This document shows, piece after piece, positions 7,510-37,877 of a DNA stretch of 64,000 nucleotides. Source of the DNA: Ruminococcaceae bacterium UBA6416 (lineage in GTDB: Bacteria > Bacillota > Clostridia > Oscillospirales > Acutalibacteraceae); contig DJPI01000010.1 in NCBI GenBank assembly GCA_002438505.1, forward strand, positions 24,487-88,486, in the 5' to 3' direction. Under the pieces are notes generated by a model. The model ran no database searches, was not told where the DNA came from, and saw nothing but the letters and a program-made list of their open reading frames with translations. Position numbers and translations under genes: made by a program. The number at the start of each line of letters is the position of its first letter. Position 1 is the stretch's first letter.

Positions 7510-7538
7510 TTGACAAACATTCACAGATACATTATAAT
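7510..7538 (+). promoter_or_regulatory. Consensus sigma-A promoter
   Basis: TTGACA, 17-nt spacer, TATAAT, about 60 nt upstream of the 7598 ORF. Confidence 0.65.
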
Positions 7539-11203: not shown

Positions 11204-13213
11204 ATGAAAAAAACAGTTGAATTTGAAAAAGGCAAAAAGGTCTTTCCGGTTATTATTGCAATAATCGGCGCAGCTCTTGCGGCGGCTCAGATCATAACGC
11301 GGCTCAATTTTGTTTCCGTTCTGTGCGTTGGTTATTGCTGCATTGTTTCGGCGCTTATGCTGATTTCGCTGATATTCAAAAAGAAAGTCTATCTTTTCAT
11401 GCTTCTGGGCTATGCTTTTTCCTTTGGAGGCCTCACCGTTTTTCATATTGTTTTTGGTGCGGACTCCGGCTTTGGTGCGTTTTCAAGCGGCCTTGCCGGT
11501 TGGTCGAGCGCCGCTCATCCGCTTCTTTCCGGGGAGGGGAGCTTTTTCCTGCGCCTTTGCGGAAATCTTCTGCTTTCCCTGCCTGTGATAATCAGCTTCT
11601 TCCTGCTTGTCCTTTTTTCAAAAAAGAGCTTTAAAAAAGAAAGGGCGAAAAACGCCCTCTGCTCATTTTTGAGCCTTCTTCTTGTTGGCTCCTCCGTTGC
11701 GAGTGTTCTTTTCATGAACATGAGAACAAAGCCGGTGACCGAACGGCTTTGGGAGGGCGAGGAGGATTACCTCAAAGGCGTTGACAAAGCGCAGAAAAAC
11801 AGTCCAAATGTTCTTTTTGTTCTTATGGATGACCTCGGATACGGCGATGTTTCGCTCAACGGCGCAATATATGAAACGCCGAATATTGACTCAATAGGCG
11901 AAAACGGACTTAATTTTGAAAACTTTTATTCAAGCTATTCGGTTTGCTCACCCGCCCGCTTTGCCGCAATGACAGGACGCTATCCTTACAGAGGCTATGC
12001 GGACAATGTTGTTTATCCGACAATTTCAACCGTTTCGCCCTTTGCGCAGACGCGGATTTTTAACAGCATTGAAATGGGCAATAACACCGACGGAATGCTC
12101 GGAGACGAAATTACCGTTGCGGAGGTTTTTAAGGCCGCCGGATACTCAACCGGTCTTTTTGGAAAATGGCATCTCGGTGATTACGGTGAGTATCTTCCAA
12201 CAAACCAGGGCTTTGATTATTTTTACGGCAGTCACCACGTCAATGACATGACACCGTTTTACCATGTCCGCGAGGAGGGCGGCGAATACACCATTGCCCA
12301 CGGAACGGATGAGCTTAAAGATCAGTCGAAGGCGACCGGCTGGATAAACGAGGAAATTACCGATTGGATAACCGAAACCGTAACAAAAAAGGACGAACCT
12401 TTCTTTGCCGTTTACACCTCTCCGTGGCCGCACGCACCGGTTTTTGCCGGTGATGAGTTCAAGGGCTCAACGGGAATGGGTACATATGTTGACTGCATCA
12501 ATGAATTTGACGCCGGACTCGGAAAGCTGTTCACAACGCTTGATGAGCTTGGTGTTCTTGAGGACACGATAATTGTTTTCACAAGTGATAACGGCCCGGC
12601 GCTTGAAGGCTCGGTCAATGAGCTGCGCGGCGGAAAGTATCTTGCCTATGAGGGCGGCCAAAAGGTTCCGTTCATGCTCCGGTGGGACAATAACAACGGT
12701 CTGTTCAAAGCCGGAGAAACAAGAAAACAGAGCGCAACTCTTGTTGACCTTTTCCCGACCCTGCTTTCCCTTTGTTCAATAACCGGAAACGGTAAGGACG
12801 GATATCTTCCATCGGATCGCGTCATTGACGGCGTTTCAATGCTGCCGCTGATTAAAAATGACAGTGTTATCCACACCGAAAAAACGCCGATTCTCCATAT
12901 GAAACGCAAGGACATCAAGGCCATTCAGTATACCGTTGAAACCTCCGAGGTTAAAAAGCTTTATCCTGATTATAACTATGATGTGCTGAACAAGAACAAG
13001 CAAATAACATTCAAATATTTTGACCGCATTCAAAACGATAACTCCGCGTTTTTTGATAAGTTCCGCAAAAACTGGCTGCATATTCTGACCGATGACAGCG
13101 GTGAAAACTATAACCGTTCCGGAGTCTATCCGCTTGTTGCGGAAAAGATGCACGCAAGGCTTGATGAAATTCAGACCGATTTTGAAAAGAATCCGAGAGG
13201 TATAATTAAGTAA
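11204..13213 (+). CDS. Membrane-anchored Cys-type (formylglycine) sulfatase
   Basis: About 170 aa N-terminal with ~5 hydrophobic segments. The sulfatase domain follows, with NVLFVLMDDLGYGD and the FGly motif CSPARFAAMTGR. Confidence 0.8.
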   Translation: MKKTVEFEKGKKVFPVIIAIIGAALAAAQIITRLNFVSVLCVGYCCIVSALMLISLIFKKKVYLFMLLGYAFSFGGLTVFHIVFGADSGFGAFSSGLAGWSSAAHPLLSGEGSFFLRLCGNLLLSLPVIISFFLLVLFSKKSFKKERAKNALCSFLSLLLVGSSVASVLFMNMRTKPVTERLWEGEEDYLKGVDKAQKNSPNVLFVLMDDLGYGDVSLNGAIYETPNIDSIGENGLNFENFYSSYSVCSPARFAAMTGRYPYRGYADNVVYPTISTVSPFAQTRIFNSIEMGNNTDGMLGDEITVAEVFKAAGYSTGLFGKWHLGDYGEYLPTNQGFDYFYGSHHVNDMTPFYHVREEGGEYTIAHGTDELKDQSKATGWINEEITDWITETVTKKDEPFFAVYTSPWPHAPVFAGDEFKGSTGMGTYVDCINEFDAGLGKLFTTLDELGVLEDTIIVFTSDNGPALEGSVNELRGGKYLAYEGGQKVPFMLRWDNNNGLFKAGETRKQSATLVDLFPTLLSLCSITGNGKDGYLPSDRVIDGVSMLPLIKNDSVIHTEKTPILHMKRKDIKAIQYTVETSEVKKLYPDYNYDVLNKNKQITFKYFDRIQNDNSAFFDKFRKNWLHILTDDSGENYNRSGVYPLVAEKMHARLDEIQTDFEKNPRGIIK

Positions 13214-14292
13214 TGCCGCCGCTTTCAATAATGATTAAACCGGCCTCAAGCCTTTGCAACCTCAGGTGCAGATATTGCTTTTACTGCGATGTTGCGGAAA
13301 ACCGGGAAGTTTTCACCTTCGGAATGATGACAAAAGAGACGGCGGAAAGTCTCATCAAAAGCGCACTCGAATTTGCAAACGGAGAAAGCGTTGCTTTTGC
13401 CTTTCAGGGCGGTGAGCCGCTTCTTGTCGGACTTGACTATTTCCGCTTTTTTGTCTCCTGCGTTGAAGGAAACAATAAAAAAGGCTCGCGGATTTTTTAC
13501 TCGGTGCAAACCAACGGAACCCTCATCACGGATGAATGGTGCAAGTTTTTCCGTGAGAATGAATTTCTTGTTGGTCTGAGCCTTGACGGCGACCGGGAGG
13601 GAAACCGCTTCCGCGTTGATTCAAAAGGGAACAATGCGTATTTTAAAATTCTCAAGGCCGCCGAAAAGCTTAAGAAGCATTCCGTGGAGTTCAACATTCT
13701 TGTTGTCCTCACTGCCCTTTGTGCAGAGCGGTGCGAAAAGGTGTATAAATATTTCCGTGACAACGGCTTTAAGTATCTCCAGTTCATACCGTGCCTGCGG
13801 CCGTTCGGTGATGAGAGCGAAAGCGAGCTTTACATGACGGAAAAGCAGCACGCCGAATTTCTTGTTAAGACGTTCAATCTTTATGTCAAGGACTTTGTTC
13901 GCGGAAATTATGTCAGCATCCGCCTTTTTGACAACTGGGTGAGAATGTTCCTCGGCGAAAAGCCGGAGCAATGCGGCCTTTGCGGCCATTGCACACACCA
14001 GCTTGTTGTTGAGGGAAACGGAAACCTTTATCCCTGTGACTTTTTTTGCACCGATGAATGGCTGCTTGGAAACATTGAAACCGTTTCGGTTGAAGCGGCT
14101 CTCACCGGAAAAAGGGCGCAGAAATTTATCCGTGAGAGTCTTGAAGTTGATGAAAGGTGCAAAAGCTGCCGCTTTTTTTCAATGTGCCGCGCTCAAGGCT
14201 GCAAGCGGCAAAAGGTTCATGCGGATTACTGCTTTTCTTACTGGACATTTTTTTCATCCTGTCTTCCTTTGTTTCGTGTGTTCGGAAAATAA
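13213..14292 (+). CDS. Anaerobic sulfatase-maturating enzyme (radical SAM / SPASM)
   Basis: CNLRCRYC (CX3CX2C) near the N-terminus. C-terminal Cys clusters CGLCGHC, CDFFC, CKSCRFFSMCRAQGC. The ATG overlaps the sulfatase stop (TAATG). Confidence 0.8.
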   Translation: MPPLSIMIKPASSLCNLRCRYCFYCDVAENREVFTFGMMTKETAESLIKSALEFANGESVAFAFQGGEPLLVGLDYFRFFVSCVEGNNKKGSRIFYSVQTNGTLITDEWCKFFRENEFLVGLSLDGDREGNRFRVDSKGNNAYFKILKAAEKLKKHSVEFNILVVLTALCAERCEKVYKYFRDNGFKYLQFIPCLRPFGDESESELYMTEKQHAEFLVKTFNLYVKDFVRGNYVSIRLFDNWVRMFLGEKPEQCGLCGHCTHQLVVEGNGNLYPCDFFCTDEWLLGNIETVSVEAALTGKRAQKFIRESLEVDERCKSCRFFSMCRAQGCKRQKVHADYCFSYWTFFSSCLPLFRVFGK

Positions 14293-14374
14293 TCACAAAT
14301 AAGGAAAAAAGGATATCCTGCATATGCAAAAGAATAAAGAATTATTAAATTTTTAATTTTTCTTGAACAATCTA

Positions 14375-14403
14375 TTGACATTATATAAAATCAGTTGTAG
14401 AAT
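14375..14403 (+). promoter_or_regulatory. Near-consensus sigma-A promoter of micro-ORF 1
   Basis: TTGACA, 17-nt spacer, TAGAAT. Confidence 0.6.
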
Positions 14404-14486
14404 AGCAAATGATGATTAAGGTTTGTTGGCTTATGTCAATGCACTTTTTTCAGCGCTGAAAATTATTAAAGAGGGAGGACAGACAC

Positions 14487-14579
14487 ATGGACGCAAAGAC
14501 GTTTTTTGAAAAGTTTGAAGTTATCTATAAGGCCATCTGGAAATTCCTTTATGCCACCATCCTTTCAGACCTTAAATAA
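14487..14579 (+). CDS. 30-aa aromatic amphipathic micro-protein (paralog 1)
   Basis: MDAKTFFEKFEVIYKAIWKFLYATILSDLK. GGAGG lies 8 nt upstream of the ATG. It has its own promoter and terminator. Confidence 0.55.
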   Translation: MDAKTFFEKFEVIYKAIWKFLYATILSDLK

Positions 14580-14595
14580 TTGACGAAAAAAAGTG

Positions 14596-14629
14596 AGGCT
14601 GTCACTCAAGTGGCAGCCGTCTTTTTTTT
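14596..14629 (+). terminator. Intrinsic terminator of micro-ORF 1
   Basis: ggctgtcac-tcaa-gtggcagcc hairpin followed by a T8 run. Confidence 0.7.
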
Positions 14630-14742
14630 GCCTGGATGCTGTGGCGAAGTTGAGAACCGGATGCTTTCAATTCGTGATTCTTCCCCGGCTTCCGGTTATG
14701 GCATATGATTTTCTGTATGCAACTAAAATTGTTAAAAAATTG

Positions 14743-14771
14743 TTGACATTTCAAACTTTTAGTGATATCAT
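14743..14771 (+). promoter_or_regulatory. Sigma-A promoter of micro-ORF 2
   Basis: TTGACA, 17-nt spacer, TATCAT, preceded by a TGn extended -10. Confidence 0.6.
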
Positions 14772-14836
14772 AGCATCGAGATTGGGAACGATGAGAATCG
14801 TTTCACTTGAATTAATTTATATGGAGGAACATTATC

Positions 14837-14962
14837 ATGAAATTCACATGGGAAGATTTTGAAAAGCTTTGGCAGGCACTTTGGAAGAACATTTATCTCT
14901 TCTTGAGCCATTTCGGCATTGAAACTCCGATCGGCTCCGAAGAGAGCCGCTCGCTTGACTAA
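14837..14962 (+). CDS. 41-aa aromatic amphipathic micro-protein (paralog 2)
   Basis: MKFTWEDFEKLWQALWKNIYLFLSHFGIETPIGSEESRSLD. GGAGG lies 9 nt upstream of the ATG. It shares the FEK...A[IL]WK.[IL]Y core with paralog 1. Confidence 0.55.
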   Translation: MKFTWEDFEKLWQALWKNIYLFLSHFGIETPIGSEESRSLD

Positions 14963-14986
14963 TTTAAGATTTACTTTTTGAAGCCG

Positions 14987-15027
14987 CGTTCCCTTTTGCT
15001 TTTTGCCAAAGGGGACGTTTTTTTGGA
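14987..15027 (+). terminator. Intrinsic terminator of micro-ORF 2
   Basis: cgttcccttttg ... caaaggggacg stem followed by T7. Confidence 0.65.
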
Positions 15028-15028
15028 A

Positions 15029-15058
15029 TTGACAAACACGGGTGAATTTTGATAGAAT
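15029..15058 (+). promoter_or_regulatory. Sigma-A promoter
   Basis: TTGACA, 18-nt spacer, TAGAAT, with a TGn extension. Confidence 0.55.
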
Positions 15059-15088: not shown

Positions 15089-16024
15089 ATGAAGAGATTT
15101 TTCAGCCTTTTGCTTTCGCTGGTTATGATTTTTTCTGCTCTTTCGCTTGTCTGCTTTGCGCAGGTGGGTGACGCCGTTCCGTTTAAGAACAGTCAGTATT
15201 TTGAATGCGGTGATTATTCGCTCCATTACAGAACATATGGCGACAGCCGTTCCTGCCGCGCAAAAGTGATGCTGCTCCACGGATTTGGGCTTTCCTCCGC
15301 CTCGCTTGAGGGTATTGCTTCTCAATATGAAAAAGAAGGTTATTTTGTTGTTACTCCGGACGTTCCGAATTTTGGCTATTCGAGCCGTGAGACAGACAAA
15401 ACCGCTCTCCTCTCGCGTGAGGAACTGATTTTTGCGCTGATGGAGCAGTACGGCGGAAAATGGATAGTCGGCGGACATTCAATGGGCGGCGGAATTGCGC
15501 TCAATGTTGCGCTTGACCACCCGGAAAAGGTGACGGGACTTGTTCTTTTTGCGCCGCAGACGAGTACCGAGGCTGTGGGTACTGTTTCAAAAATTATGAG
15601 AAGCAAGGTCATGCAGACCGTTTTTGGCGCAATCATCGGACTTATCAAGCCGTTTCCGAGCCTCGTCCGTCCGCTTGTTGCGGTCAGCTTTTCGGATATA
15701 AAGTTTGCAAAAAGCTATGACATTTCAAGAATTTCCGCTCCTCTTGCGCTCAGCGGAACGGGTGCCGGAATGGCAATAATGGCCTCCCACACACGAGGCA
15801 CCGATCTTGAGGCGCTCCATAAGCTGGGTATTCCGGCTGTCATTATCACCGCCGAAAATGATTTGGTTGCAAACAAAAAGAATTTAAAGAACATCTTAGA
15901 TTTTGCACCCGTTCAAACGAGTGTATATTGCGTTCAGAGCGGCGGTCACATGATGATGGAATATGACCCGGAGAATACGGCAGCGCTCACTTTGCCCGTG
16001 ATGGAAAAAATGGTTGCTGCGTGA
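15089..16024 (+). CDS. Secreted alpha/beta-fold hydrolase
   Basis: Signal peptide MKRFFSLLLSLVMIFSALSLVCFA. Nucleophile elbow GHSMGG. HG oxyanion region (MLLHGFG). Confidence 0.75.
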   Translation: MKRFFSLLLSLVMIFSALSLVCFAQVGDAVPFKNSQYFECGDYSLHYRTYGDSRSCRAKVMLLHGFGLSSASLEGIASQYEKEGYFVVTPDVPNFGYSSRETDKTALLSREELIFALMEQYGGKWIVGGHSMGGGIALNVALDHPEKVTGLVLFAPQTSTEAVGTVSKIMRSKVMQTVFGAIIGLIKPFPSLVRPLVAVSFSDIKFAKSYDISRISAPLALSGTGAGMAIMASHTRGTDLEALHKLGIPAVIITAENDLVANKKNLKNILDFAPVQTSVYCVQSGGHMMMEYDPENTAALTLPVMEKMVAA

Positions 16025-16663: not shown

Positions 16664-18664
16664 ATGAAAATGGCGATTAAAAATGCTAAGAAAACACTCG
16701 CGGTTCTTTTGAGCGTTCTTATGCTCTGCTCATTTGGCGCTGTGTTTGTCGGCGCCGAGGGCGCAATCAAATGGGAAACCGCACCGGACGGATATTCGCT
16801 CACAGTTCCGAAAAGTGAAACCGATGTTGAAACTCTCACTCTCCCCGTGGCAACGGCTGAGGGCATTGAGGGCGCGGTCAGCTATGAGCTTGTTATTTTG
16901 AACGGTGAAAATGAAACAGCCGTTCAGGCGGAAGTTTTCAGCTTTAAAACAGACAATCCGGAAATTAAAGTTGGCAACAACATTAAAAATTATGTTTCAA
17001 ACAATGACATTGACAGAGACGGAAGCATCATTCTCGGCATGAGAGCTTCCTGCGGAGAAGTCAAGTCCGACCTCTGCCTCATAAAAATTGAAAATGTTAA
17101 GGTCAAGGCAACTTTCAGCTATATAAACAAAAAAGCTCAAGAAGCCAACAAGGAAACCGAGGTCTTTTACGGCACGTCCGCAAAGAGCTTTGCGGACGGA
17201 ATTGACGACCGTGAAGAAGTTGAAAATGATGAGTTCTTCCATTATGATTTCAAGGGCTGGGTAGCTATGGACGGCTCTGAGTCCACCGTTGAAAATGTTA
17301 TTAAAGATACTGTTTTTGCCCCTTCAATCGTTTCTGAGGCTCATACTTGGGTTAAAGATGAAGAGAACAGCAAAGAAAAGTCCTGCACCGAGGGCGGCGT
17401 ACTTGCTGAAATTTGCAGTGTGTGCGGTGAAACAAGAACCACGGACATTCCTGCCGGCCATGATTGGGTCGAGGAAGCGCCCGGCGTTCCGGCAACCTGC
17501 ACTAAGGACGGAAAAACCGCTTCCAAGGTTTGCAAAAAGTGCGGCGCAAAAGAGGAGTCTCAAGTAATCCCCAGCAAAGGCCACACTCCCGTTGATGACC
17601 CGGCAACACCGGCAACCTGCACTGAGCCTGCAAAAACCGCAGGAAGCCATTGCGCGGTTTGCAAAGAAGTTTTAGTTGAGCAGAAGAATGTCGGTGAGGC
17701 ACTCGGCCACGACAAGGTTCAGCATGACGCAAAGGCTCCCACCTGCACAGAAGTCGGCTGGGATGCATATGAAACCTGCTCACGCTGCAGCGAGTACACA
17801 ACCTATGTTGAAAAGGCAGCTCTCGGCCATCTCATTGACGAAACAGACGAGAGCACAAAAATTGAAGCCGTCTCTGCAACCTGCTTGGCCGCCGGTCGCA
17901 CAGAGGGCTATAAGTGCAAGCGTGAGGGCTGCGATTACACAACCTGCAAGACTATTGAAAAGCTCCCGCACACAAAGACCGAAGTTAAGGAAGCCGTTTC
18001 TGCAACCTGCACCAAAACCGGCCTCACCGAGGGATACACCTGCTCGGTTTGCCATACGGTTGTTGTTCAGGAAGTTGTTCCCATGATTCCCCACACCGAA
18101 GTTATCATTCCGGCTGTTCCTGCAACCTGCACCAAAACCGGCCTCACCGAGGGCAAAAAGTGCTCCGTTTGCGAAACTGTAACCGTTCGTCAGGAGGTTG
18201 TCCCCGCTCTTGACCACGATTGGAAGGTTACCAAAAAGGGTACTCCGGCAACCTGCACCGAAAAGGGCATTTCCGATGAAAAAACGTGCCTGCGCTGCAA
18301 GGCTGTTGAACCTCAGGCGGAGCTTGAGCCTCTCGGCCACAAACTTGTCACAGAATACGGCAGAGATGCAACCTGCCTTGAGGACGGACTGACCGATAAG
18401 ATTTTCTGCTCAAGGTGCAATGAGGTCATTCAAAAGGCAGAAGTAATTCCGAACCTTGGCGGACATAAGGATCTTGACAATGACGGCTTCTGTGATCACT
18501 GCGGAGCGGTTGTTGAAAAGCCGCAGCCCGGAAACCAGTGTGGCTGCATGTGCCATAAGGACGGCTTTGTCGGCTGGCTGTGGAAGAGTATTCTTTGCCC
18601 GATCTGCAAGTTCCTCGGCATTGAACAGGACTGCGCTTGCGGAATCAAGCATTGGACAAAATAA
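16664..18664 (+). CDS. Secreted Cys/His-rich repeat protein with a distinctive C-terminal Cys/His plus aromatic-helix tail
   Basis: Signal peptide. A Listeria-Bacteroides-like segment (FFHYDFKGWV). About 9 tandem modules [AP]TC[TL]xxGx5-6CxxCx13-17H. The tail is CGCMCHKDGFVGWLWKSILCPICKFLGIEQDCACGIKHWTK. Confidence 0.6.
   Translation: MKMAIKNAKKTLAVLLSVLMLCSFGAVFVGAEGAIKWETAPDGYSLTVPKSETDVETLTLPVATAEGIEGAVSYELVILNGENETAVQAEVFSFKTDNPEIKVGNNIKNYVSNNDIDRDGSIILGMRASCGEVKSDLCLIKIENVKVKATFSYINKKAQEANKETEVFYGTSAKSFADGIDDREEVENDEFFHYDFKGWVAMDGSESTVENVIKDTVFAPSIVSEAHTWVKDEENSKEKSCTEGGVLAEICSVCGETRTTDIPAGHDWVEEAPGVPATCTKDGKTASKVCKKCGAKEESQVIPSKGHTPVDDPATPATCTEPAKTAGSHCAVCKEVLVEQKNVGEALGHDKVQHDAKAPTCTEVGWDAYETCSRCSEYTTYVEKAALGHLIDETDESTKIEAVSATCLAAGRTEGYKCKREGCDYTTCKTIEKLPHTKTEVKEAVSATCTKTGLTEGYTCSVCHTVVVQEVVPMIPHTEVIIPAVPATCTKTGLTEGKKCSVCETVTVRQEVVPALDHDWKVTKKGTPATCTEKGISDEKTCLRCKAVEPQAELEPLGHKLVTEYGRDATCLEDGLTDKIFCSRCNEVIQKAEVIPNLGGHKDLDNDGFCDHCGAVVEKPQPGNQCGCMCHKDGFVGWLWKSILCPICKFLGIEQDCACGIKHWTK
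18000..18153 (+). repeat. Intragenic tandem duplication (120-bp period)
   Basis: Perfect 34-nt copy ctgcaacctgcaccaaaaccggcctcaccgaggg at 18000..18033 and 18120..18153. The gcaacctgc (ATC) core recurs about 9 times across 17490..18370. Confidence 0.85.
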
Positions 18665-30376: not shown

Positions 30377-30421
30377 ACAGATGTTAAATGTTCTTTGGAA
30401 TGTTTGACATCTGTTTGTTTT
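30377..30421 (+). terminator. Terminator after aspS, overlapping the next promoter
   Basis: aacagatgttaaa ... tttgacatctgtt stem plus T-rich tail. TTGACA in the 3' arm plus TATAAT 16 nt downstream form a promoter. Confidence 0.5.
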
Positions 30422-37751: not shown

Positions 37752-37780
37752 TTGACAGAACAGAAATAATACGCTATAAT
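37752..37780 (+). promoter_or_regulatory. Perfect-consensus sigma-A promoter
   Basis: TTGACA, 17-nt spacer, TATAAT. Confidence 0.65.
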
Positions 37781-37792
37781 TGAATAAATCGA

Positions 37793-37834
37793 CCGCTGAT
37801 TAATCTTAATTAAAAATTAGTCAGCGGTTTTTTT
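37793..37834 (+). terminator. Promoter-proximal intrinsic terminator in the leader of the 37878 gene
   Basis: 12-bp stem ccgctgattaat / attagtcagcgg (one G-U pair), 11-nt loop, T7 run. It starts ~12 nt after the -10 box. Confidence 0.65.
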
Positions 37835-37877
37835 AAAAAAACGCGGCTTTAAAAGGCTGTTAAGGAGGAAATTTTGC

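Follow-up and report, generated by a model that had tools for sequence, protein, structure and literature searches.

Two adjacent micro-open reading frames (ORFs) on the plus strand of contig DJPI01000010.1 (GCA_002438505.1, Ruminococcaceae bacterium UBA6416) are almost certainly expressed coding genes of a conserved family. They lie in a stretch of 64,000 nt, hereafter the window, for which ORFs were listed at ≥25 aa. ORF1 (14487..14579; 30 aa, net charge +1, MDAKTFFEKFEVIYKAIWKFLYATILSDLK) is a type A and ORF2 (14837..14962; 41 aa, net charge -3, MKFTWEDFEKLWQALWKNIYLFLSHFGIETPIGSEESRSLD) a type B micro-protein, and both peptides, as quoted in the first-pass annotation, were reproduced exactly and at the same coordinates by reading of the sequence and from the ORF list. 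The family, previously unnamed in every library searched, is restricted to Oscillospirales, with members of 28-42 aa. Its kind is a known one, that of tandem leaderless amphipathic micro-peptides, from which it is set apart by its acidity, its aromaticity, conservation at the level of residue identity, its multi-type sets and its expression cassette. The whole statement, which joins this conserved coding family to a mechanism at the cell envelope resembling that of the phenol-soluble modulin (PSM)-beta peptides, has somewhat less than an even chance of being right.

Each of the two genes is bracketed by its own transcription and translation signals, all on the plus strand. The ORF1 promoter (TTGACA-17-TAGAAT, 14375..14403) matches the consensus at 11/12 positions and is followed by a 5′ untranslated region (UTR; 14411..14486) with GGAGG at 14474-14478, 8 nt 5′ of the ATG. 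The gene ends in an intrinsic terminator (14597..14629), the hairpin of which (14597-14618, a 9-bp G+C-rich stem) runs into T8 (14622-14629). The ORF2 promoter (TTGACA-17-TATCAT, 14743..14771), also 11/12, carries a TG extension upstream of the -10 box; its 5′ UTR (14779..14836) folds into a 5′-proximal 8-bp hairpin (14785-14804), has GGAGG at 14823-14827, 9 nt 5′ of the ATG, and the terminator (14990..15024) consists of a hairpin with a 9-bp stem (14990-15015) and T7. The consensus scan and the reading of the sequence confirmed these promoters, ribosome-binding sites and terminators as the first-pass annotation had claimed them, and likewise its view of two independent transcription units with strong signals. 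The transcripts predicted from these signals, ~220 and ~250 nt long, would start near 14410 and 14778, end at the two T-runs and be structured. A counterpart of the ORF1 promoter, again 11/12, occurs in the related loci L021, L023, L031 and L040, and the ORF2 promoter of L040 has identical hexamers, spacing and TG extension.

Signals are dense in this part of the window. Three plus-strand promoters of 11/12 (14375, 14743 and 15029) and two plus-strand terminators fall within 700 nt, and the 1.3-kb region holds 10 promoter-like sites, as against 2.2 ± 1.5 in shuffles. The third promoter (TTGACA-18-TAGAAT with TG, 15029..15058, 11/12) stands directly after the ORF2 terminator and serves the hydrolase gene at 15089..16024; since that gene has its own promoter, ORF2 is not its leader. 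Among the 12 promoters of ≥11/12 in the whole window, a micro-ORF follows only those of ORF1 and ORF2.

The coding status of the two ORFs rests mainly on how they diverge between relatives. Both peptides are present as called proteins in public assemblies, and the locus is also found in a metagenome-assembled genome (MAG) at NCBI (GCA_002404495.1, contig DHJU01000107.1) and in many gut metagenomes, which form two clades, ~100% and ~91% identical to the window. Compared with the 91% clade, none of the 29 nt of either promoter is changed, whereas the adjoining intergenic DNA differs by 18% on the ORF1 promoter side and by 23% just upstream of the ORF2 promoter. Divergence is 0.042 in ORF1 and 0.011 in codons 1-30 of ORF2 (0-1 substitutions), against 0.18-0.23 in the intergenic spacers, the ORF2 UTR and the ORF2 tail. 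In ORF1, the four differences are all synonymous (Sd = 4, Nd = 0), with a proportion of changed synonymous sites (pS) of 0.235, on a par with the 0.23-0.33 of the flanking genes for a radical SAM (rSAM) protein and the hydrolase. In the ORF2 tail, the nonsynonymous proportion (pN) is about equal to pS. The ORF1 terminator hairpin is kept despite 9 substitutions, and one stem pair of the ORF2 UTR hairpin is replaced, A-U by G-C.

The ORF2 core shows no synonymous change in the closest clade, where ~3.6 would be expected. A constraint at the nucleotide (RNA) level was considered for this core and rejected, synonymous sites being saturated in deeper comparisons. Indeed, in four more distant genomes the pS of the micro-ORFs is 0.25-0.71 (0.5-0.7 in 7/8 comparisons) and that of the flanks 0.52-0.72, while pN in the helices is just 0.11-0.26. 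Because pS is saturated like the flanks and pN stays low at this depth, it is the protein and not the RNA that is under selection. Every relative retains the reading frame, the start codon and GGAGG, and no stop or frameshift variant with conserved nucleotides was found among 20 same-species loci. Frames that were not conserved in relatives had been named in the first-pass annotation as what would speak against coding; the reverse emerged, with frames kept across genera and purifying selection on the protein. Its dismissal of the 89-aa ORF at 14593..14862 as an artefact also held, for this ORF is frameshifted in the 99.9%-identical strain L002 and is broken by stops in the 91% clade. The ORF1 terminator has a T-run (14622-14629) that is length-polymorphic between these 99.9%-identical strains, T8 in the window and T7 in L002, and this difference alone makes or destroys the spurious 83/89-aa gene-finder ORF.

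The family was traced by profile and pattern searches. A single-sequence word search with ORF2 gave no match beyond its own cluster. In comparison, a profile of both paralogs, searched exhaustively against 1.84 billion representative proteins, recovered seven further micro-proteins of 28-57 aa with the same motif, and a word-indexed search with the enlarged alignment brought the total to 21, none with a Pfam domain or a name. A scan of DNA with the back-translated pattern FE.FE..[WY]...W...Y, one genome for each of 185,579 species, returned 40 loci, 24 of them with a family ORF and all of these in Oscillospirales-type gut MAGs. Their labels read Acutalibacteraceae, Oscillospiraceae, Ruminococcaceae, “Clostridia,” “Eubacteriales” or “Faecalibacterium sp.” and the samples they stem from are human, deer, goat and horse. 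The remaining 16/40 loci, from other lineages and without a family ORF, were set aside as chance or unrelated hits. The family was not found in plasmid and phage collections. The peptides had no match in Pfam or NCBIfam (at E ≤ 1), PADLOC, PHROGs or PDB sequences, and Rfam 15 had none at gathering score over the micro-ORF cassettes of the window and 19 related loci. A full-text search for the motif FEKFE gave no relevant literature match, and the family motifs are absent from the supplements of two gut small-ORF papers. The first-pass annotation could place the peptides in no named family, and this was borne out by sequence, RNA and structure-sequence libraries.

The micro-ORFs occur as ordered sets, as was seen when the surroundings of each locus were scanned for small ORFs preceded by a ribosome-binding site. 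Type A, to which ORF1 belongs, has the consensus MAEFFEKFE.IWQ.LWAYLYKV..., and may be replaced as the first gene by type A2 (MDWDTIKAVLAEIVAYFK..., 30-32 aa). Type B, that of ORF2, has the consensus M.FE.FE.MYA.LWEFIY..LAIFGIEKDE.GNL, and takes the form MKFTWEDFE.FW.ILW.NIY.FFSHFGFDTPLDPEE in the window lineage. The third gene is frequently type C (MDAFFEKIEEIL.WI..FI..., 34-42 aa, with a very acidic tail) or, alternatively, type D (MNLWDTIVNMFGLNHLVELIEWIKSIFA, 28-30 aa). The C-terminus of type D, LIEWIKSIFA, recalls the end of enterocin L50A, IIEWIKKHI. In these sets A or A2 takes the first place and B the second, with C or D last, and 20/23 surveyed loci have 2-3 ordered micro-ORFs. Extra types (A2, C, D) lie, among others, at L024 5448-5555, L030 2055-2147 and 2451-2555, L029 5656-5742 and L053 6398-6523, each with its own strong promoter, 5′ hairpin and terminator; none of the three types was found in the window. 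In 7 genomes the gap between A and B is 42-58 nt and the two are bicistronic, with one shared promoter and one terminator, whereas in the other 13 the gap is 165-273 nt (257 nt in the window) and the promoters are separate.

The first-pass annotation had taken ORF1 and ORF2 for paralogs. BLASTP gave no alignment between them, so paralogy had to be shown by profiles and composition-preserving shuffles, and both bear it out. ORF1 scored 20.8 bits against a hidden Markov model (HMM) of type B only, the best of 2000 shuffles reaching 11.9, and ORF2 scored 32.4 bits against a type-A-only model, with a best shuffle of 9.6. By hhalign, subfamilies A and B are related with 98.6% probability (E = 6e-16). 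Types A and C are probably homologous as well (89.9%), while for types D and A2 hhalign gave no sequence link to the others.

The expression cassette recurs along with the peptides. In the 23 loci surveyed, most transcription units have a TTGACA-17-TATAAT promoter of 11/12 or 12/12 (C and D units 9-11/12), GGAGG 7-9 nt 5′ of the ATG and a strong terminator, and these signals recur in ~20 genomes. The 100 nt upstream of A, A2 and B are stereotyped across genera: TTTGAATAAACTA-TTGACA-N17-TATAAT, a 5′-proximal hairpin, an A/U-rich stretch and GGAGG. In the clades linked to the neighbouring gene c0 (see below), the ATG lies at a fixed 50-54 nt from the -10 box. The 5′ hairpin covaries, with compensatory changes in 5/6 pairs among 22 A, A2 and B units from other genera, and the hairpin at 14785-14804 of the ORF2 mRNA is its equivalent. 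Hairpins at the 5′ terminus stabilise mRNA in Firmicutes. Judged from these signals, expression should be very high and is probably constitutive.

Two elements near ORF1 might be regulatory. An A/T-rich element abutting the -35 box on the plus strand (14362..14374), recognised in alignments of the upstream regions, reads CTTGAACAATCTA in the window, TTTGAACAAAGTA in the closest genera and TTTGAATAAACTA in the c0-linked clades; it is (near-)invariant while the promoter spacer and the UTR vary, and is a candidate UP element or regulator site. In the 5′ UTR itself, a perfect 16-nt palindrome, TTTTCAGCGCTGAAAA (14447-14462), occurs once in the window. Aligned or matched in the window and in L021, L023, L031, L033, L040 and L060, it is invariant amid a variable flanking UTR. 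The only departure in the window clade is one substitution in the L011 group, and the c0-linked clades lack the palindrome, which is a candidate for an operator or for an RNA hairpin bound by a protein.

The peptides themselves are predicted to be short aromatic helices. Aromatic residues make up 7/30 of ORF1 and 8/41 of ORF2, the counts given earlier being correct on recount, and 13-26% of the family depending on type. No 19-residue window of either peptide is hydrophobic enough for a transmembrane segment (maximal Kyte-Doolittle mean 0.83 in ORF1 and 0.66 in ORF2, compared with 2.24 in Fst). There is no signal peptide either: the conserved motif begins at residues 2-8, with no hydrophobic N-region or cleavage site. 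Composition and hydropathy therefore agree with the first reading, which saw neither cysteine nor signal peptide nor transmembrane helix. With the family alignment, AlphaFold2 models ORF1 as one continuous helix (residues 3-29, mean pLDDT 88.7) and ORF2 as a helix (5-26) with a Phe-Gly cap and a low-confidence, disordered acidic tail (mean pLDDT 73.6). The hydrophobic moments (muH 0.57 and 0.52, respectively) are comparable to those of PSM-alpha3, delta-toxin and leaderless bacteriocins, and together with the models they support the amphipathic helix that had been proposed. Invariant in the 20 type-A sequences are F7, F10, E11, W18 and Y22, plus W/Y14 and L21, and column statistics give F8, L15, W16, I19, Y20, F26 and G27 for type B. 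All invariant residues lie on one helix face, the opposite face being free among E, K, Q and A. The mean pI is 5.4 for A, 4.3 for B, 4.2 for C and 5.0 for D, and the mean net charge by type ranges from -1.5 (D) to -6.1 (C). Tryptic digestion would yield FEVIYK and FLYATILSDLK from ORF1, and FTWEDFEK, LWQALWK and NIYLFLSHFGIETPIGSEESR from ORF2.

The genes around the micro-ORFs differ between lineages. Upstream in the window, a gene for a membrane-anchored Cys-type sulfatase (11204..13213; 669 aa, CSPAR motif, multi-transmembrane N-terminal domain) overlaps with its stop the start of the gene for an anSME-like rSAM/SPASM protein (13213..14292), which ends 195 nt before ORF1. The rSAM/SPASM protein scores 378 bits with the anSME equivalog of NCBIfam (cutoff 441) and 327 bits with TIGR03942 (cutoff 349); as both scores fall just under the cutoffs, it is read as a divergent anSME just below the naming thresholds. 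By neighbour clustering, the sulfatase/rSAM pair stands upstream solely in the window lineage (6/29 loci), where the two always co-occur. Downstream of ORF2, the secreted alpha/beta-hydrolase (15089..16024), syntenic with micro-ORFs in 5 loci, is followed by a DtxR-family repressor and then by a secreted Cys-rich repeat protein of 666 aa (16664..18664) with repeated C..G....C..C modules and no Pfam or NCBIfam match. The latter ends in C.C.CHKDG-(amphipathic aromatic helix)-FLGIE..C.CG..HW and has homologs near micro-ORFs in 4 loci. To the eye its tail resembles type B; hhalign gives merely 7%.

The commonest neighbour across loci is c0, a secreted protein of 155-240 aa with 14-17 Cys and an amphipathic C-terminal tail, which the neighbour survey places directly upstream and on the same strand in 14 loci, or 16 with the matches of L028 and L064 to an HMM of the c0 tail. 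Examples are L027 4328-4828, L029 4327-4800 and L049 4394-4981, with at least 13 other loci, and where present, c0 is immediately upstream of the micro-ORF set. It consists of a Sec signal peptide, a CHCC..CP...CC.EC.G..PC.C.C.CC domain, an acidic linker and the tail F..GFQAILKRISD.FD..FDAIFEFLRLDEILG; it has no Pfam or NCBIfam match, and its family, likewise unnamed, comprises at least 54 clusters. In the reverse direction, 3/3 independently chosen divergent c0 homologs were followed by 2-3 family micro-ORFs. A derivation of the peptides from the C-terminal tails of the secreted Cys-rich proteins c0 and c7, or a mimicry of them, is not claimed, hhalign giving ≤18%. Secreted alpha/beta-hydrolases or lipases adjoin the micro-ORFs in ~11 loci, the window included; in other genera, these lipase-like neighbours include Lip_C (3 loci) and a further family resembling alpha/beta-hydrolases (3 loci). 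UvrC and PcrA are further neighbours. Neighbour clustering found no conserved partner gene common to all loci.

An important question is what such peptides do, and the following mechanism is put forward tentatively, with confidence clearly below even. Each peptide would be made directly in mature form, unprocessed and in large amounts, as one amphipathic alpha-helix, the invariant aromatic stripe of which (F..FE...W...W..LY in A; F...Y/W..LW..IY.....FG in B) would be a packing surface. Through this stripe A and B, with C or D where present, might come together as a hetero-oligomeric helical bundle or attach to a hydrophobic interface, and the assembly would owe its solubility to the variable acidic tails. 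The single bicistronic mRNA of A and B in 7 genomes is offered in support of their mutual association. Their most likely site of action would then be the cell envelope or a lipid-water interface, where they would work in bulk, perhaps following non-classical export. Action at the envelope is proposed because the neighbours are mostly secreted envelope proteins and because the gene architecture is like that of staphylococcal psm-beta.

Among known systems, the nearest functional analogue would be a leaderless amphipathic peptide of the PSM-beta/delta-toxin type. Like PSM-beta1/2 (44 aa) and delta-toxin, the micro-proteins are predicted to be translated in mature form without a signal peptide and to form a single amphipathic alpha-helix, with muH of 0.52-0.57 against 0.48-0.66. 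Tandem paralogs in very short, strongly expressed transcription units are common to both (here predicted from the signals), and PSM-beta peptides are also near-neutral to acidic. On the other hand, there is no sequence match to the PSM-alpha, PSM-beta and delta-lysin families (Pfam and NCBIfam, E ≤ 1), the host is an uncultured gut Oscillospirales, and the micro-protein family is far more aromatic, with invariant E/F/W/Y and acidic disordered tails. A further-reaching version, which is considered unlikely, is that uncultured gut Oscillospirales (Acutalibacteraceae and relatives) might mass-produce a hetero-oligomeric set of A, B, C and D peptides, released without a signal peptide and active outside the cell. 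There they could be anionic PSM analogues that remodel the surface or a lipid interface, could partner the co-encoded c0 and secreted lipases, or could be formyl-peptide ligands for host receptors.

Several observations weigh against an envelope mechanism of the PSM-beta type. Most membrane-active peptides are cationic but these are acidic, and a specific protein partner would explain the invariant identities of E, F, W and Y no less well than a generic interface would. c0 is no obligatory partner, because the window lineage, in which none was found, is entirely without it. Promoter strength alone is unexceptional in this genome, consensus promoters being fairly common here (12 of ≥11/12 per 64 kb). 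Moreover, none of the 168 neighbouring ORFs in 29 loci (±4.5 kb) has the Walker A and LSGGQ motifs of an ABC ATPase, although in staphylococci, too, the pmt transporter gene is unlinked to the psm genes.

The most serious rival, although improbable enough to be held only as a minority view, is that the micro-proteins are intracellular docking peptides, whose aromatic/acidic face binds and modulates one specific protein, for example an envelope-biogenesis or secretion factor. It stays serious because residue identities, beyond hydrophobicity, are conserved: F, E, W and Y are kept on one helix face across genera. The lack of a signal peptide and of a nearby transporter fits an intracellular role, which is also the mode of action of many bacterial small proteins. 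Residue 2 is Ala or Thr in many type A members, which would permit the ordinary removal of Met in the cytosol. Yet a regulatory small protein is seldom kept as 2-4 paralog types that each have a maximal promoter of their own, and no candidate partner gene is common to all loci. The tandem arrangement would in turn suit a multi-peptide leaderless bacteriocin that permeabilises competitor membranes, like aureocin A70, garvicin KS or enterocin L50; this reading is quite improbable. Multi-peptide leaderless bacteriocins (aureocin A70, garvicin KS and the cereucins, or the two-peptide enterocin L50/DD14) are likewise leaderless, unmodified tandem homologs, with 2-4 homologous side-by-side peptides of 30-44 aa, often Trp-rich, that act together (PMC6131525). 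The predicted amphipathic helices of 28-42 aa described here, leaderless as well, rich in Trp, Phe and Tyr and encoded as 2-4 tandem paralogs, share this gene layout. However, leaderless bacteriocins are cationic, with a pI of ~10-11 and a net charge of +3 to +8 (PMC6131525), opposite to the acidic family (mean pI 4.2-5.4, net charge -1.5 to -6.1; ORF1 +1, ORF2 -3). Bacteriocin loci carry export and immunity genes, while the 168 neighbouring ORFs include neither an ABC transporter nor an immunity-like gene, and no library matched.

The remaining alternatives have still less in their favor. Modification of the peptides as precursors of ribosomally synthesised and post-translationally modified peptides (RiPPs) by the upstream rSAM/SPASM enzyme, for example by cyclophane cross-links on aromatics, would accord with the 195-nt distance from ORF1, the anSME score below the equivalog cutoff (378 against 441), the unusual aromaticity of the peptides, and secondary NCBIfam matches to cyclophane-forming maturases (DynA with 178 bits, DarW, AmcB). 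It is nonetheless very improbable: the enzyme matches the models of anaerobic sulfatase maturases far better than any others (378 and 327 bits), the rSAM start overlaps the stop of the CSPAR sulfatase gene, its constant companion, the rSAM gene is present in just 6/29 loci, all from one lineage, and the peptides have their own promoters and terminators, with neither protease nor exporter close by. Type I toxins repressed by antisense RNA, a model that the first-pass annotation had offered for checking, found no support and deserve slightly less credence again. The Firmicutes toxins of this type (Fst, TxpA, BsrG) are similar in size (~30-40 aa) and in their short monocistronic transcripts with an own terminator; Fst, too, has an acidic C-terminal tail. 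The small ORFs, strong promoters and own terminators of the micro-ORFs agree with this, and weak minus-strand promoter-like hexamers (9-10/12) exist at 14605-14576 and 14439-14412. But whereas these toxins combine a true transmembrane helix with an overlapping antisense RNA and with sequestration of the ribosome-binding site, none of the three was found here: no segment reaches transmembrane grade (0.83 and 0.66 against 2.24 for Fst), the folds do not stably sequester the ribosome-binding site, and the sole antisense candidate reading into ORF1 has its -35 box destroyed in the 91% clade and lacks a terminator. Maximal constitutive expression signals in ~20 genomes are the opposite of toxin repression. 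Hardly credible at all is a role as non-coding or dual-function small RNAs, or as leader peptides attenuating the hydrolase gene, with the ORFs incidental. The short, structured transcripts and the lack of synonymous change in the ORF2 core (0 against ~3.6) would suit it. An RNA-only role is ruled out by the saturation of synonymous sites at depth while the amino acids are kept; the frame, start codon and GGAGG persist in every relative, and Rfam gave no match. Attenuation is ruled out since the peptides have their own terminators and the next gene has an independent promoter past a strong terminator; moreover, downstream genes vary between genomes.

Genes as short as these are dropped by most annotation pipelines, although the expression signals of this family rank among the strongest in its genomes and its ordered sets are kept under purifying selection, and its carriers are common, uncultured gut bacteria. 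If abundance matches the signals, the micro-proteins would be among the most transcribed and translated products of their carriers, and might account for unannotated “intergenic” peaks in metatranscriptomes and unmatched spectra in metaproteomes. Should the reading as anionic PSM analogues be true, they would form a new class of abundant commensal effector peptides missed by annotation and proteomics. In any case, the family provides a clean, testable case for the roles of acidic amphipathic micro-proteins, and its cassettes (UP-like element, consensus promoter, 5′ hairpin and GGAGG) are ready strong expression parts for the engineering of Oscillospirales.

A few minor observations concern the wider loci and the rest of the window. 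A solitary, Cys-containing subtype of type A (MQAFFEKFEAFWQQLWEVLYKYCPWLQGTKK) lies 3′ of c0 in L035, L046, L048, L050 and L064, MAGs labelled “Faecalibacterium sp.” or Ruminococcaceae. In contrast to the rest of the family, this subtype has weak promoters (8/12), and a membrane Ser/Thr-kinase-like protein is encoded upstream in 2-3 of these loci. A Gut-1 RNA (RF01706; 62 bits, above the gathering score) occurs on the minus strand of L053 (7373-7444), ~430 nt upstream of the micro-ORF set and at the usual position of c0, in 1/19 loci. No Rfam family or tRNA was found in the whole window. At 37752-37840, a 12/12 promoter is followed almost at once by a long hairpin with a T-run and then by a gene for a secreted protein, an arrangement that could be an attenuator or a very short transcript. 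Another 12/12 promoter, at 7510, has a 5′ hairpin and stands upstream of a secreted-protein gene, and those at 30404 and 45864 precede protein-coding ORFs, the one after 30404 starting with a hydrophobic N-terminus.

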